The notes under the pieces were generated by a model. It saw only the letters and a list, made by a program, of their open reading frames with translations, was not told where the DNA came from and did no database searches. Below, piece after piece: positions 41,329-47,158 of a stretch of DNA of 50,683 bases (position 1 is the stretch's first letter; every line of letters begins with the position of its first letter). The position numbers were made by a program, and so were the translations under genes. Origin of the DNA: Candidatus Sordicultor fermentans (GTDB lineage Bacteria; Atribacterota; Atribacteria; Atribacterales; Caldatribacteriaceae); contig DGDO01000021.1 of the NCBI GenBank assembly GCA_002385475.1, positions 1 to 50,683 on the forward strand, read 5' to 3'.

Positions 41329-41818
41329 GGTAGCAAGCTTTTTTTATAATTTCGACAGGAAGCCATATTATAGCAAACCGCAAAATCCACAGTATACTCT
41401 TTCCTCCGTGCTCTACTCATCTTTCACAATTAAGACATTGTTTCGGATAATTACACCCCGGGATGTCTTTGCGAGCACTTTGCATCAACTTTTCTTTCCA
41501 TTCGGAGAGAAATTACAACAGGTTTTGTGAGGCTACTATTTTCGCAAAGACAATACTAGATTAAGGTCAGGTTAAATGGTAAAATCCAGGTTGCAAAGTA
41601 TTGATGTAAAACGTAATATAAGTTATATAAAAAAGTAAAGGTCTAAAGATAGATACGCATTTTTTCAGCAGCTTTCTAATGGTTTTATGAGAATACTGAA
41701 ATCAAAAAGCAGATATTGAGGCACACCACCCAGAAATTTACATCCCCCGTTAGCAGTAAAATCAGGCGGACCAAAAGTCTTTAGGCTCTGGAAATAAATA
41801 AGAGCAAAAAGTTGCAGC

Positions 41819-41847
41819 TTGAGGCTTCATATAGAATTGTGTATAAA
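41819..41847 (+). promoter_or_regulatory. weak candidate promoter upstream of the methyltransferase-HerA-NurA cassette
   Basis: TTGAGG (41819-41824), a 17-nt spacer, then TATAAA (41842-41847). This is ~70 nt upstream of the ATG at 41917. Confidence 0.3.
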
Positions 41848-41916
41848 CGAAAAGATTCAGATAGTTTAAGTCATAAGCAATGCTCTTCCAAATGGAACTT
41901 TGAGGGGGGGATTAAA

Positions 41917-42744
41917 ATGAACCAAAAAAAACTAGTAATACGTTACCCTGGTGGAAAACAGAGGATTTTAAACTTTATAATGCCATTTTTGCTCTCAAGA
42001 GAAGAGATAACAGAGAGATATATAGAGCCGTTTTTTGGAAGTGGTGCAGTATTTTTTGCATTAAATCCCGCTCGTGCTTTGTTAGCAGATATTAACCCAG
42101 AACTTATTGATTTGTACCGTGGAATACGATTTGCTCCGCTGAAAGTCTGGGAAATATATGAAAGTTTCCCCGCGACTAAAAAGGCATATTACGAAATCCG
42201 AGCAATTAAGCCCGATGGAAGAGATCTAGCGTTCAAAGCAGCTAGAACTCTTTATCTAAATAGAACTTGTTTTAAAGGTATGTGGAGACACAACTCAAAA
42301 GGAGAATTTAATGTCGGGTATGGAGGACAAGGTAGACGATGGGTAATTAATCAAGAAATTTTGAAAGAGGTTGCTAGCAAATTAAAGAAAATGATTCTAA
42401 AATGTAGTGATTTTGAAGAAGTCATAAATAAGAGTATAGAAGGAGACTTCATTTTTGTTGATCCACCATACAGACCTGGAGAACGTGAAATGATTCATGC
42501 TCATTATATATACCTCAAATTCAGTTATTCAGAATATCAAAGGCTGGCAAAAGCGCTGAGAGGAGCATCAGATAGAGGAGTAAAATGGGCGATGACTATT
42601 TCCTCCCATCCTGATATTTTAGAACTGTTTTCCGGAAATTATATTGTCCCTATTCCAAAAGGCACAGGGAGAAAACCCGGAATTTTAACAAACGATTCTG
42701 GTGAAGTTTTAGTCTTAAATTATAGGAAGGAGGAACCGCTATGA
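41917..42744 (+). CDS. D12-class (Dam-like) N6-adenine DNA methyltransferase
   Basis: The start was taken at ATG 41917 (GAGGGGGGG RBS 6 nt upstream). It has RYPGGKQRIL, the AdoMet motif EPFFGSGAVF, ADINPELIDLY, LYLNRTCFKGMWRHNSKGEFNVGYG and the catalytic motif DPPY (FIFVDPPY). Confidence 0.9.
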   Translation: MNQKKLVIRYPGGKQRILNFIMPFLLSREEITERYIEPFFGSGAVFFALNPARALLADINPELIDLYRGIRFAPLKVWEIYESFPATKKAYYEIRAIKPDGRDLAFKAARTLYLNRTCFKGMWRHNSKGEFNVGYGGQGRRWVINQEILKEVASKLKKMILKCSDFEEVINKSIEGDFIFVDPPYRPGEREMIHAHYIYLKFSYSEYQRLAKALRGASDRGVKWAMTISSHPDILELFSGNYIVPIPKGTGRKPGILTNDSGEVLVLNYRKEEPL

Positions 42745-44723
42745 AAAAATTTTTTGATAAGGCTGCGATGCAAAACCATCCACTCAGAGTTTTGCAAAAA
42801 TTTCTTGAAGAAGAAAAAGCAAAAGAACAGGCAAAAAAATATAATGAAATGTGTTTTGTCGGATATGTTCTTGATATTAGTTACGATACCGTTACTATTA
42901 TTACTTCCGATCCCTTCAAAATCGCTGTAGGTGGAGTGCCCAGAAACTCACTGCTCATAATGGTGCCGTCTAACTATGATACCTTACCTCCACACTTTAC
43001 ATTGTTACGGGTTTTAGAAGCAGCACCGACACCTCTTTCAAAAGAAGTTCAGCAAACATACTTTGAATTGCAGAAAAAATCTATGCCAGAACTTGACATT
43101 TTTACTCAGAGTGAGCTTCAATGGGGTGCTCTTAAGACAGCTGTCCTTGGAATGTTTTACCCTCATCCCGAAAAAATGGATACTGTGGAATTTTCAGGAG
43201 ATTTAAATAATTTTGTTAGTGCTCATAAATATCGGGTTTATTCTCCTGATGATGATTTATTGGATCTCATAATTAATTCTATGGTTTCCGACGAAGGCCG
43301 TTTTCCTATAGGCGATTTACGATTGACGGAATGTAGGCTAGCTCTGTCAGGTAAAGCTCAGCCAAAAGTTCCCGTTTATGTTTCTACGAAGGATTTTATG
43401 GGTACACGTACAGCAATGTTTGGCAAAACACGACTTGGCAAAAGTAATGTGGTCAAGCTCATTGCACAGAGTTTGATTGAGACAACAAAGGATACGAAAA
43501 GTGTTGGGCAGCTAATATTTGACATTAACGGTGAGTACGCAAATGATAATCCTCAGGATGGTAGTGTTTCCTTAAGAAGTGCATATCAAGATCGGTGCAT
43601 TGTTTACGCCCTGACAAAAAAGCCCACAACAGAATCAAAACCCTTAAAACTTAATTTTTATGAACATCCTGATCGCTCACATCGTGTATTGGCAAATCTC
43701 TTAGAGACGGAAGGACGAACATCTATTTATGTGAAGGCATTTATCGGAGCAGAAATCCCTTCTCTTGAATTATTAAATACTATTACTGACTATGGGGAAA
43801 GAAAAAGAGCGGAGCGGAGGATTTTGATGTACTGGGCTATTCTTAAGAAAGCAGGTTTTGATGTTGATGAAAATACTCTAGCAAAAAAATTAAAATTCGA
43901 CCCAAGTTATAATCAAAAATTGCGTTCTGCTATTTGGCAAGGTACCACACCACCACCTATCGATTCTTTAGACAGTCTTGTATCGGAGTTTGAAAAGATA
44001 GCAGAATTTATGAGAAATAAACCAGACGATAGTGTCTTAAAATCTTCGGGGAGTGATGAAACTTTATTTAAACCTGATGACCAAGCAATTCTCAATTTTC
44101 TCAAGCCCTCCGTTGGTGCAGGCCCAATGATGATCCAACGATTTCGCATTTACCATGATAAGGAAGCTGGCGATTTTGTCAAAGAAATAAATCGATTATT
44201 AGATGACGGACAAACGGTGATTTTGGATCTCAGTAACGCGAATCCTGAAGTAATGAAGTATTTCTCTGAAGAATTATCAGCGGCTGTTTTTATGTATCAG
44301 GTTGAGAAATTTAGCAATAATCAGTTAGGTGACCATTTTGTACAGCTATATTTTGAAGAAGCACATAATCTATTCCCATATTCTGGAGATGTTACTACAA
44401 TCTACAGCCGTTTAGCAAAAGAAGGAGCAAAATATCACATTGGAATGGTATATTCCACTCAGTCACCAACAACCATCAACAAAGATCTATTAGCACAAAC
44501 TGAGAACTTTTTTATTGTTCATCTGGCATCTCAGGACGATGTTAATATGCTTGCCAAGGTAAACATTGCCTATGAAAGTTTAAAGGATGATATTCTTCGA
44601 GCAAAAACAGTGGGATACGTAAGAATGTTGACTCGTTCACATCGTTTTGTTGTACCTGTACAAGCAAGAAAATTTGAACCACTTAATTCAGAACAAAAAG
44701 GAGAGAGCCAAAATGCCTTATAA
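42741..44723 (+). CDS. HerA-like (FtsK/HerA superfamily, DUF87-type) ATPase with N-terminal HAS-barrel-like domain
   Basis: It has a Walker A motif (GKTRLGKSN), a Walker B / HerA signature (VQLYFEEAHNLFP) and the downstream motif YSTQSPTTINKDLLAQTENFFIVHLASQDD. The N-terminal CFVGYVLDISYDTVTIITSD...VPRNSLLIMVP resembles the HAS barrel. Its ATG overlaps the methyltransferase stop (ATGA). Confidence 0.8.
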   Translation: MKKFFDKAAMQNHPLRVLQKFLEEEKAKEQAKKYNEMCFVGYVLDISYDTVTIITSDPFKIAVGGVPRNSLLIMVPSNYDTLPPHFTLLRVLEAAPTPLSKEVQQTYFELQKKSMPELDIFTQSELQWGALKTAVLGMFYPHPEKMDTVEFSGDLNNFVSAHKYRVYSPDDDLLDLIINSMVSDEGRFPIGDLRLTECRLALSGKAQPKVPVYVSTKDFMGTRTAMFGKTRLGKSNVVKLIAQSLIETTKDTKSVGQLIFDINGEYANDNPQDGSVSLRSAYQDRCIVYALTKKPTTESKPLKLNFYEHPDRSHRVLANLLETEGRTSIYVKAFIGAEIPSLELLNTITDYGERKRAERRILMYWAILKKAGFDVDENTLAKKLKFDPSYNQKLRSAIWQGTTPPPIDSLDSLVSEFEKIAEFMRNKPDDSVLKSSGSDETLFKPDDQAILNFLKPSVGAGPMMIQRFRIYHDKEAGDFVKEINRLLDDGQTVILDLSNANPEVMKYFSEELSAAVFMYQVEKFSNNQLGDHFVQLYFEEAHNLFPYSGDVTTIYSRLAKEGAKYHIGMVYSTQSPTTINKDLLAQTENFFIVHLASQDDVNMLAKVNIAYESLKDDILRAKTVGYVRMLTRSHRFVVPVQARKFEPLNSEQKGESQNAL

Positions 44724-46017
44724 ACCTGGAGAACGATTACCTGGAGAAAGAGCCAGTCGTCTGGGGCACCTTGAGGTTCTTAAAAGCGAACTTGTAAATA
44801 AATTGGTTAAAAATTTTGAAGAAGGTAACGCTAATGTAGCTATCGCAAATTTAAAGTGGGAACCTATACCCTCAGGAGGGGAATTGTTGCCAATAGTTTT
44901 TGGTATTGATGGTTCAATGCAAGTAATTGATTCTGAAACTCCACCTTATAAAAGCCTTGCATTCGTAAAAACTGCTCTCTTAAGAATTGATCAATTCGCG
45001 CTTTCTAGAATAGATAAAGACTCACCCCATCCGCTTGCATTACGTGACATACTTGCTGATTCAGCGTTATATCATGCGACAGTTTTCCCGCTAAGACACG
45101 TGTCTATCCCTGGTCAAACCACATATCATGCCATAAGAGGAATCATCTTTGAATCTTTGAGGGATAAATCATTAGATGGTGAACCGATGGAAACACTTAA
45201 ATGGCTTGCTTATGAGAAATGGAGTGGTAACCATAAACAATTGCCTCTTTTCGAATGTCCTCATTGTGAAGAAACTGTAGCTACGCTTCCATATGATGCA
45301 GAGACAGGTAAATGCCACAAATGTAATGGTGATTTATTTCTAACAGACATGCTGGGATTCCATCAGGAAATGACTACAGATTCAGCACCGAATACTATTG
45401 CAACAAATTATATGAGCATTCATGAGGTTTTATTACTATTCACGGGCATTCGATACTATTGGGAGAAAAGAAAGGAAATTCTTTCTAAATGTCTTTTTGT
45501 AAAGGATGGGCCTCTTGCAATTCGTGCTCAGTATTCAAAACTTGTAGCTCCCATCCGCCGATTTTTATCATTTGCAAGAGATCAGGGTTATCCAATCCAT
45601 ATAATTGGCCAAGAAAAATCAGGAAGATTCTTTGATCATTTGGAACTCATAGGAAAAAATGTGCCTGAAGGACATATCTTTATACCAGGCGATGAATATA
45701 TAAAAGAAGAAATCCAGCACAGACCCACCTCGGGAGCACCATATGGCAAAGACACAAATTATGGGGCAAAAGTTTTTGTTAAAATCAACAATTATCATAA
45801 AATGGTATTGAATATTCCCACAGGTGAATTCGTTGAAAATCCAACATTATCTAATTTGATTGGTGCTAGTAACATTTTTGCTACACTACCAAGTATCTTG
45901 AGCAATCGATATGAAGGAGCTCTTTTACCTGTTGAACTTGCAAATGGCATAGCTTCTCTTTCTACTTATCCCTCAGCACAAATTCTTAAAATTTTTACAG
46001 ATGCAAGGGGTATTTAG
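44713..46017 (+). CDS. NurA-domain nuclease-like protein with an inserted CxxC...CxxC zinc ribbon
   Basis: The start was taken at ATG 44713 (AAAGGAGAG RBS), overlapping the HerA-like gene by 11 nt. It has NurA-type motifs: IVFGIDGS near the N-terminus, VKDGPLA and IIGQEKSG later. CPHCEETVATLPYDAETGKCHKCNG (nt 45256-45324) is inserted between them. Confidence 0.7.
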   Translation: MPYKPGERLPGERASRLGHLEVLKSELVNKLVKNFEEGNANVAIANLKWEPIPSGGELLPIVFGIDGSMQVIDSETPPYKSLAFVKTALLRIDQFALSRIDKDSPHPLALRDILADSALYHATVFPLRHVSIPGQTTYHAIRGIIFESLRDKSLDGEPMETLKWLAYEKWSGNHKQLPLFECPHCEETVATLPYDAETGKCHKCNGDLFLTDMLGFHQEMTTDSAPNTIATNYMSIHEVLLLFTGIRYYWEKRKEILSKCLFVKDGPLAIRAQYSKLVAPIRRFLSFARDQGYPIHIIGQEKSGRFFDHLELIGKNVPEGHIFIPGDEYIKEEIQHRPTSGAPYGKDTNYGAKVFVKINNYHKMVLNIPTGEFVENPTLSNLIGASNIFATLPSILSNRYEGALLPVELANGIASLSTYPSAQILKIFTDARGI

Positions 46018-46199
46018 ACATGGAGGATATATGGTTTTTACTGGAAAACATTACTCGGCATAATAAGTGTGCCATAGTATGAAAGTTTCGCACTTTGGCT
46101 TTCGTCTAAATTCTTTGTGGTCCATTACTTCTTCACATCCGTGGAATGTTGAATGTTACATGAAATTGCAGCTTTTAAAAAAGCTGGAGGTGTTAAGAA

Positions 46200-46883
46200 A
46201 TGAATTATAAATTGAGTCCGTCCGATTTTACATTTCTATACGAGGGCTGTAAACGATGTTATTATTTAAAAGTGGTTCATAACATCTCTCAACCATCTAT
46301 TCCTCTGCCTTCTATCTTTAGCACAATCGCAGACCTCTTGAAAAACCATTACGATGACAAACACACAAAAGAATTGTACCCCGAGCTACCACCCGGCCGG
46401 GTGGTGTACAGTGAAAGATATGTAAAATCGGAACCTATCCAGCTGGCAGGCCATAATGCCACATGTTTCATTAGTGGGAGATTTGACATTGTTGTTGAGT
46501 TTGATGACAATACTTATGGCGTCATAGATTTCAAAACTGGCAATCCAAATGAGGAACATCAAACTCTTTATAGTCGTCAGCTACACGCATATGCCTATGC
46601 TCTCGAGCATCCCGCCCCGGGTTCACTGGGTTTATCTCCTGTTTCAAAAATGGGTTTATTATATTTCCATCCCTCAAAGACCAGTCAATCAACCATTGAC
46701 TGGCTTTCCTATGACGCTAAAATAAACTGGATTGAAACAAATAAGGATGAACAGGGATTTTTAGATTTCATAGAAGAAGTATTGAGTGTACTTGAATCTG
46801 ACAGGGCTCCTGACCCCTCACCAGACTGCCAGTGGTGCAACTATATCAGCAAATTAGAAAGTTACTCCAGAGTTGTAGAATGA
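46200..46883 (+). CDS. PD-(D/E)xK nuclease, Cas4/RecB-like, with four cysteines (CxxC...CxxC)
   Basis: It has N-terminal SPSDFTFLYEGCKRCYYLK, motif II (GRFDIV), motif III (GVIDFKTG, i.e. D-x-K), the QxxxY motif (YSRQLHAYAYAL) and C-terminal PDCQWCNY. GGAGGTG RBS lies upstream. Confidence 0.75.
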   Translation: MNYKLSPSDFTFLYEGCKRCYYLKVVHNISQPSIPLPSIFSTIADLLKNHYDDKHTKELYPELPPGRVVYSERYVKSEPIQLAGHNATCFISGRFDIVVEFDDNTYGVIDFKTGNPNEEHQTLYSRQLHAYAYALEHPAPGSLGLSPVSKMGLLYFHPSKTSQSTIDWLSYDAKINWIETNKDEQGFLDFIEEVLSVLESDRAPDPSPDCQWCNYISKLESYSRVVE

Positions 46884-47158
46884 AGAAAGAGAATGCCACT
46901 TAATGCAACAAGTGGGTATATGGTTCGCTACGCTCAAGGCTTCTCGCATCTACGAACTGCTATACCCACAACCATAACCCACTGGAGGCGATAAGGCGAC
47001 CTAGGTTAAGTCTAGTAATATTCTTAAAGGTTCATTCTGGCCGGGAAAATAATTAAAAGCTTGAGAGCAAGCTGTGAGGGTAGAAAACAGTAAGCTTTCT
47101 TGGCCTATTTGCTACCATAACTCCTTTTAGTATTTTCCACCCATATAAACCCCCCTCC

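Follow-up and report, generated by a model that had tools for sequence, protein, structure and literature searches.

The 50,683-nt stretch of Candidatus Sordicultor fermentans DNA analysed here (contig DGDO01000021.1, positions 1-50,683, forward strand), which we call the window, carries at 41812-46183 what is probably, judging by analogy with characterised relatives, a horizontally mobile three-gene restriction-modification-like defence module. Its three open reading frames (ORFs) encode a Dam-type methylase, a TdpA-like ATPase and a TdpB-like nuclease. The observations behind this reading are the identity or fold of the parts, their gain and loss as one unit, their conserved order and co-variation across genomes, and the repeated link of the ATPase-nuclease pair with two families of methylase. 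An initial annotation of the window had proposed a methylation-guarded, restriction-like HerA/NurA cassette made of four co-directional ORFs. All four ORFs do lie on the + strand in the ORF listing of the window, and the proposal held for the first three, which form a single indel with conserved synteny and co-varying sequences and whose relatives have a second methylase family. It did not hold for the role given to the fourth, Cas4-like gene. The features concerned are the following:

41812-46183, + strand: three-gene insertion of 4.37 kb that holds ORF1-ORF3; its join is seen in contigs L079 and L081
41917-42744, + strand: ORF1, 275 aa counted from the ATG 3' of the GAGGGGGGG ribosome-binding site, Dam-family D12 alpha-class N6-adenine DNA methyltransferase
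42741-44723, + strand: ORF2, 660 aa, TdpA-like ATPase of the HerA/FtsK superfamily
44713-46017, + strand: ORF3, 434 aa, TdpB-like NurA-fold nuclease with an inserted zinc ribbon
46200-46883, + strand: ORF4, 227 aa, generic PD-(D/E)XK (Cas4-like) protein

The limits of the unit were obtained from sister strains, whose contigs were recovered through the gene upstream of the insert and then compared with the window by BLAST. L079 (GCA_046128175.1) and L081 are 99.8% identical to the window up to position 41811 and resume at 46184, and there the junction leads directly into the ribosome-binding site and start of ORF4. ORF1-ORF3 are missing from these strains as one 4.37-kb block, and ORF4 is kept; the three genes are a single unit of gain and loss. 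A 6-bp AAAAAG repeat (41806-41811 and 46178-46183) leaves the exact boundary uncertain by its own length, and a 9-bp TTGCAGCTT repeat lies near both ends of the insert (41812-41820 and 46166-46174). The GC content is about 0.37 across 41-46 kb, compared with 0.42-0.46 in the flanks.

The same three genes recur together far beyond this species. One genome from each GTDB species was scanned, and the 62 loci obtained were analysed with three further loci (L001, L002 and L004); 49 of the loci were informative in the sense of having at least 2.9 kb of upstream sequence. An intact methylase-ATPase-nuclease run in the same order was found in 41 of these 49; this is the synteny that the initial annotation had wished to see checked, and the Cas4-like gene was never part of it. 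One of the other eight loci held a lone nuclease gene and the rest held fragmented copies, most of them from metagenome bins of long reads, and an intact ATPase plus nuclease lacking the methylase was found at none of these close-family loci. Across loci the identities of the three proteins to their window counterparts co-vary (r = 0.74-0.83), a sign that ORF1-ORF3 are co-inherited. Loci with the trio span more than 20 bacterial and archaeal phyla, including Deinococcota, Bacillota, Cyanobacteriota, Chloroflexota, Acidobacteriota, Bacteroidota and archaeal methanogens. Cultured carriers, which allow direct tests, include Deinococcus pimensis DSM 21231, Meiothermus hypogaeus DSM 23238, Aeribacillus pallidus and Thermovorax subterraneus, as well as several archaea. 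Clustering of 165 flanking ORFs by similarity gave a largest cluster of 2 members: no conserved fourth gene was found, and no integrase, relaxase or other transfer gene travelling with the trio. Integrase, transposase, AbiTii and HipA genes do adjoin the module or its relatives at individual other loci, which speaks for mobile or defence surroundings, as does the druE insertion of a sister strain described below.

Several further features of the close family were observed. The nuclease and the ATPase are 70-86% identical between unrelated bacterial phyla and archaea (Methanophagales, Methanoperedens and Nitrososphaeraceae; for example at loci L001, L002, L013 and L043), which points to recent and very wide horizontal spread. 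At an Anaerolineaceae locus (L056:2-1930) the D12 methylase is distant from ORF1 (phmmer 2e-39) and lies downstream of the nuclease instead of upstream of the ATPase, an arrangement that suggests replacement or rearrangement of the methylase within the close family. Divergent methylases (39% and 31% identity) also stand beside well conserved ATPase and nuclease genes at L049 and L058. Decayed copies are frequent (L026, L039, L066 and L067), and several genomes keep only fragments of the nuclease and have neither methylase nor ATPase.

The sister strains also decide the standing of ORF4, which the initial annotation had counted as part of the cassette. ORF4 is a resident chromosomal neighbour and not a component of the module, because it is kept in strains without ORF1-ORF3 and was found within 7 kb of the trio at none of the 62 foreign loci. 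A four-gene system, with the Cas4-like protein creating or processing DNA ends for the other three, would fit the co-directional position of ORF4 182 nt downstream, and PD-(D/E)XK/Cas4-type domains fused to UvrD recur beside related pairs (9 of 80 distant and 3 of 62 close loci). ORF4 shows no detectable similarity to those fused nuclease domains, however; it follows its 182-nt gap with its own GGAGGTG ribosome-binding site, and on its other side lies a second variable slot with the Druantia gene druE. We regard a four-gene system as extremely improbable, and at this locus the retention of ORF4 in strains lacking ORF1-ORF3 refutes it. The ORF4 translation holds D...DFK, Q...Y and four Cys and matches Pfam PDDEXK_1 at 2e-13. 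Its score of 32.6 bits with the Cas4 model TIGR00372 is below the cut-off of 65, so that it falls outside the Cas4 family; relatives in the plasmid collection were not found, and the PDB gave no informative match.

On the far side of ORF4, strain L008 is identical to the window through 46886, then carries 8.3 kb (L008:12175-20450) that the window strain does not have, and rejoins at 46932. This extra segment starts 3 bp after the ORF4 stop codon and encodes a 1092-aa protein without a family match and a 1597-aa Druantia DruE helicase (PADLOC DruE1, 2.9e-191). Taken with the junction in L079 and L081, it places ORF4 between two variable defence slots. ORF4 itself weakly matches PADLOC 'DruK' models (E 0.003-0.02), and it could anchor a defence hot spot or be left over from a Druantia-like component.

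Within the module the genes are tightly packed. The stop of ORF1 overlaps the start of ORF2 as ATGA at 42741-42744, and ORF2 overlaps ORF3 by 11 nt at 44713-44723, both as first annotated; a purine-rich Shine-Dalgarno-like run lies 5' of the start of ORF2 and likewise of ORF3. The overlaps may reflect a fixed stoichiometry of the products. Nearly all of the motifs quoted for ORF1-ORF4 in the initial annotation were found in the translations, and those located in the trio are:

42031-42045, + strand: FFGSG in ORF1, S-adenosylmethionine-binding FxGxG motif
42460-42471, + strand: DPPY in ORF1, catalytic motif
43422-43445, + strand: GKTRLGKS in ORF2, Walker A
44349-44369, + strand: YFEEAHN in ORF2, Walker B region, reading YFEEAHNLFP
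44902-44916, + strand: GIDGS in ORF3
45256-45324, + strand: four-Cys zinc ribbon (CxxC...CxxC) in ORF3
45502-45516, + strand: KDGPL in ORF3
45607-45624, + strand: GQEKSG in ORF3

The identity of ORF1 as a Dam-like methyltransferase was confirmed. It matches the Pfam D12 methyltransferase family PF02086 at 6.7e-43, scores 174.6 bits with the NCBIfam model TIGR00571 'dam' (cut-off 114.85) and matches the PADLOC type II methyltransferase model at 2.9e-58; its translation also contains the NRTCFKG motif. The closest solved relative is the GATC methylase DpnM (2dpm, 1.3e-34), followed by E. coli Dam, and GATC is a plausible target. Six contact residues of E. coli Dam were compared by eye in the alignment: R124 is the only one strictly kept in ORF1, where K9, Y119, N120, L122 and P134 are replaced by R, F, K, M and G.

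As a separate observation, GATC is approximately 3-fold depleted in the host sequence (57 observed against 160.8 expected under a Markov model) and is near expectation inside the insert (12 observed against 16.0 expected in 41812-46177). CTAG and GTAC are likewise low across the window as a whole. We treat the depletion as a hint and do not count it as evidence for the specificity of ORF1.

For ORF2, the annotation as a HerA-like ATPase is borne out by a Pfam DUF87/HerA match of 2.4e-14, and comparison with solved structures narrows it further. Searched against the PDB by sequence, ORF2 matches TdpA (8wet) at 4.4e-29, with HerA next at 3e-11; its family profile matches TdpA at 9.2e-35, with the next match at 2.7e-14. 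By these comparisons the best solved relative of ORF2 is TdpA by a wide margin. Curated models of anti-phage HerA and repair HerA match only the C-terminal core of ORF2 and far below their cut-offs; the NCBIfam equivalog models 'HerA_antiphage', for instance, give 59 and 48 bits where 800 and 850 are required. An AlphaFold2 (AF2) model was built from an alignment of database homologues with at least 69% identity. The model is weak, with a predicted local distance difference test score (pLDDT) of 61.8, and its six best Foldseek matches are all TdpA chains. As residues 37-168 fall below 50, the HAS-barrel-like N-terminus given for ORF2 in the initial annotation stays putative. When TdpA homologues were sought with the TdpA fragment from the PDB alignment, none was found in the plasmid collection, and the protein database returned only truncated proteins at contig ends.

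ORF3 has no match in Pfam, NCBIfam, PADLOC or PHROGs, and its assignment comes from structure. The AF2 model is confident (pLDDT 94.3, predicted template modelling score 0.92). Its top Foldseek match in the PDB is TdpB (8wfd_G; E 4.7e-10, template modelling scores 0.50/0.58), so that the fold comparison suggested at first annotation led to TdpB here and, for the weak ORF2 model, to TdpA. Since the five significant fold matches are all of TdpB/NurA type, namely TdpB (two entries), Deinococcus radiodurans NurA (7f6d, 4e-6), NurA 3tai and TM1739, ORF3 is predicted to be a divergent NurA-fold nuclease closest to TdpB, with a four-Cys zinc ribbon. The zinc-ribbon NurA-like nuclease of the initial annotation is thereby upheld, also through the family: 13 of 63 diverse ORF3 relatives match Pfam NurA (PF09376; best 1.1e-9), although ORF3 itself does not. 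In the alignment of these 63 relatives D212, D265 and G266 are invariant, and D66, E238, E301 and the cysteines C182/C185/C201/C204 are kept in at least 90%. From this alignment and the translations, the catalytic motifs of the module proteins are intact.

Close relatives of ORF3 number more than 1,900, are 72-86% identical to it and include members in Ignavibacteriota, WOR-3, Spirochaetota, Methanophagales and Nitrososphaeraceae, and the family forms 627 clusters at 50% identity. Relatives of ORF2 and ORF3 are called 'hypothetical', 'DUF87' or 'ATP-binding' in the databases, and distant ORF3 relatives carry the RefSeq name 'DNA double-strand break repair nuclease NurA'.

That name, the NurA fold and the HerA-family ATPase would all suit a housekeeping HerA-NurA module for resecting double-strand-break ends, standing beside an orphan Dam with a role in regulation or repair. 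Such a repair module was an alternative offered in the initial annotation, and bacterial HerA-NurA repair complexes do exist in Deinococcus, whose NurA (7f6d) is among the fold matches of ORF3. Archaeal and Deinococcus HerA-NurA share with the module the same two folds and the presumed design of a hexamer-plus-dimer translocase-nuclease. They are chromosomal repair genes, however, linked in archaea to mre11/rad50, whereas the module is a mobile indel tied to a methylase, and its scores to the HerA-NurA repair proteins are far weaker than those to TdpA and TdpB. No mre11/rad50 was found near the module in the window or in the sister-strain contig. The genes are present or absent between near-identical strains, and 72-86% identity across bacteria and archaea does not fit vertical descent. 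Moreover, the methylase is always co-transferred, another branch has a second, unrelated methylase family, and decayed or insertion sequence (IS)-disrupted copies are common. The strain-level presence and absence and the cross-domain horizontal spread disfavour the repair module, and we consider it very unlikely.

The closest characterised relative of the module is TdpAB, the restriction half of the phosphorothioate-based Tdp system of thermophiles (An et al., Nat Chem Biol 2025, cited in PMC12914056). PMC12914056 describes TdpABC as a defence system: TdpC places phosphorothioate at GpsATC, and the restriction of DNA falls to TdpAB. The architecture of the module therefore has a published precedent with a different modification. 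Both combine an engine of HerA-like ATPase and NurA-fold nuclease with one neighbouring DNA-modification gene; among solved structures ORF2 comes closest to TdpA by sequence, by profile and by the fold of its weak model, and TdpB is the best fold match of ORF3. Even the modified sites may be similar, as Tdp modifies GpsATC (PMC12914056) and the module methylase is closest to the GATC enzyme DpnM. The marks differ: Tdp has the sulfur-inserting TdpC and a mark on the backbone, whereas the module has a D12 Dam methylase and would place a methyl mark on a base. No TdpC-type phosphorothioate enzyme is present in the 4.37-kb unit, whose only modification gene is the D12 adenine methylase, and lacking TdpC the module falls outside Tdp, as a methylation-based sibling of it. 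The gene order of Tdp and its restriction to thermophiles are not shared either, since the module occurs in mesophilic digester, soil and freshwater genomes. At 434 aa, ORF3 is approximately 60 residues longer than TdpB (375 aa), and the extra N-terminal sequence, as estimated from lengths and offsets and not from an alignment, may include the zinc ribbon.

A more distant branch of the family provides a further link between the pair and DNA modification. A metagenome scan with this branch, which is approximately 27% identical to ORF3, gave 80 loci. A PF01555 N6/N4 methylase lies directly upstream of the ATPase in 34 of 42 non-redundant cases, one further case has a D12 methylase in that position, and four more PF01555 genes stand just downstream of the pair. 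The PF01555 fold class is unrelated to D12, so the tie of the pair to DNA methylation seems to have arisen more than once. The strongest argument that modification is functionally coupled to the ATPase-nuclease pair is that the pair is joined to two unrelated methylase families and, in its Tdp relatives, to a phosphorothioate enzyme. The remaining downstream genes of the distant branch are mixed (UvrD-type and Schlafen-type helicases, McrB-N and recombinases) and typical of defence islands. Apart from these 80 loci, the contigs found for distant ORF3 representatives were only 1.6-2 kb long.

A mechanism can be proposed by analogy. TdpA hexamers reportedly encircle DNA, and sulfur is said to block ATP-driven translocation and cutting on self DNA. 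In the module, ORF1 would mark host DNA with N6-methyladenine, probably at GATC. ORF2 would assemble into a hexameric ring and, in the manner of TdpAB, pump duplex DNA towards a dimer of the ORF3 nuclease; this machine would processively degrade DNA that lacks the mark. On methylated DNA it would be blocked at the step of loading, translocation or cutting. A candidate reader of the methyl mark is the zinc ribbon within ORF3. Complex formation between ORF2 and ORF3 and its stoichiometry are inferred here from the TdpAB and HerA-NurA structures; the GATC specificity, the protective role of methylation and the identity of the reader are likewise proposals. As to the known systems named at first annotation, archaeal HerA-NurA and the SIR2- and DUF4297-HerA systems, a HerA-family ATPase is indeed shared with all of them and the NurA fold with archaeal HerA-NurA, but the closest characterised relative is TdpAB.

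Several points weigh against a methylation-guarded defence module. Defence, self-protection and complex formation are all argued by analogy. The TdpAB ring reportedly senses a sulfur in the backbone; a ring that tracks the backbone has no obvious way to sense a methyl group in the major groove, and no reader domain was identified. With one of six Dam contact residues kept (R124), the GATC specificity of ORF1 is plausible and not proven. By sequence ORF3 and TdpB show no significant similarity (E = 2.4), so the link between them depends on the fold, and in the ORF2 model residues 37-168 are below a pLDDT of 50 and the N-terminus is disordered. The cross-phylum identity of 72-86% is unusually high for defence genes. 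Finally, methylation is not obligatory for the ATPase-nuclease pair, because some relatives carry a UvrD-nuclease or a helix-turn-helix (HTH) gene instead.

The high mobility and the strong conservation across phyla are also what one expects of a selfish unit, and the module is a bare 4.37-kb insertion. It might accordingly be a selfish or DNA-transfer module that processes or pumps the DNA of the host or of an element, or mainly a post-segregational addiction cassette with the methylase as antidote, phage defence being a side effect at most. A model for the former is the Thermus integrative and conjugative element (ICE) ICEth1, where a NurA-like nuclease and the HerA-like ATPase TdtA are required for DNA donation and were proposed to form a 'transjugation' machinery (PMC5365140). 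As in the module, a NurA-like nuclease and a HerA-like ATPase are encoded there on mobile DNA, next to genes for restriction and methylation (PMC5365140). In contrast to the module, ICEth1 is a 14-kb ICE with another gene order, on which the partners of the pair are an integrase and a restriction enzyme of type IIG (PMC5365140), whereas no integrase, relaxase or other transfer or integration gene, nor any conserved neighbour, goes along with the module. The best-scoring solved relative of its ATPase is by far the TdpA of a defence system, and addiction and defence are compatible in restriction-modification systems. A selfish or transfer function is, in our judgement, unlikely.

Two other kinds of known system resemble the module in part. 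In SIR2-HerA and DUF4297-HerA, too, a small defence operon pairs an effector with an ATPase of the HerA family. Their effectors are SIR2 or DUF4297 and not a NurA-fold nuclease, and they have no modification gene; neither domain was found in the three-gene unit with Pfam and PADLOC. Type II GATC restriction-modification systems such as DpnII likewise have a Dam-family methylase, the one in the module being closest to DpnM, and form compact mobile cassettes with short repeats. They use a classical restriction endonuclease, whereas the module is presumed to use an ATP-driven ring translocase and an RNase H-like nuclease, and no PADLOC restriction-enzyme model was matched in the unit.

Restriction-modification, the oldest known form of bacterial immunity, is divided into classes according to the restriction enzyme. 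A widespread class in which a processive ring translocase feeds a NurA nuclease would, if the defence module is what we propose, be a distinct type. We put at about even the chance that the module is the founding example of an unnamed and widespread methylation-based class, in which one TdpAB-like engine would have been joined to different self-marks on at least three occasions (Dam-type methylation, beta-class N6/N4 methylation and phosphorothioation). The TdpAB engine would then not depend on phosphorothioate and would be a 'modification-gated shredder' of general use, adaptable to other self-marks. The ring-nuclease machine would also need an undiscovered way to read a base methyl, possibly through the zinc ribbon of ORF3, and how a backbone-tracking ring could sense base methylation is the mechanistic question raised. 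Consistent with the first annotator's impression that the cassette is not a named system, PADLOC-DB 2.0 has no model for the nuclease. Because Pfam, NCBIfam and PADLOC 2.0 all fail to detect the nuclease, such loci are now annotated as an orphan methylase and hypothetical proteins. No description of a system of methylase, HerA and NurA was found in the openly searchable literature, outside which lie subscription papers, the primary Tdp paper among them.

The other alternative of the initial annotation was a remnant of a viral or plasmid replication-packaging module, with a packaging ATPase of FtsK/HerA type and a nuclease. The PHROG search did give a weak partial match of the ORF2 C-terminus to a terminase large subunit (5e-9), and one distant relative of the pair sits in a temperate Vibrio phage. 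The nuclease, however, has no PHROG, close-family relatives are absent from 2.9 million IMG/VR contigs, and the Vibrio phage genes occupy an accessory position next to the integrase with a methylase of their own. Outside the insert the window carries ordinary chromosomal genes (rpoB, rpoC, a lipid A acyltransferase, fur, a peroxiredoxin, ribonucleotide reductase and ddl), and no phage genes were found around the insert. A viral remnant is disfavoured by the first two of these points, and we give it almost no credence. The window also contains one tRNA, far from the module, and no CRISPR-like tandem-repeat array was found in it.

More distant relatives show how variable the surroundings of the pair can be. 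Plasmids and a prophage carry DUF87 and NurA-like genes at 23-25% identity, accompanied by different methylases that are placed differently, as on a Halorarius plasmid. On the Deferribacter plasmid pDF308 (L074:3126-6924) the ATPase gene is split by an IS200/IS605 element (TnpB/TnpA). On the Nostoc plasmid pANSO36C (L073:4634-9442) an HTH regulator precedes DUF87 and NurA genes with no annotated methylase; an AbiTii-domain protein follows (Pfam 2e-42), and nuclease, nuclease-inhibitor and RecD-like genes lie around. The UvrD helicases fused to a PD-(D/E)XK/Cas4-type nuclease that adjoin some pairs, often at loci without a methylase, are 920-990 aa long (L141:872-3850, L143:911-3808, L144:8456-11338, L137:3333-6086 and L032:8320-11220), and they may be an alternative or accessory partner that defines a methylase-free variant. 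In the temperate Vibrio phage 10N.286.55.C4_PE001 (L076:1-5750), a distant HerA and NurA-like pair lies beside the integrase with a convergent type II methylase, and phages may use the module against competitors.

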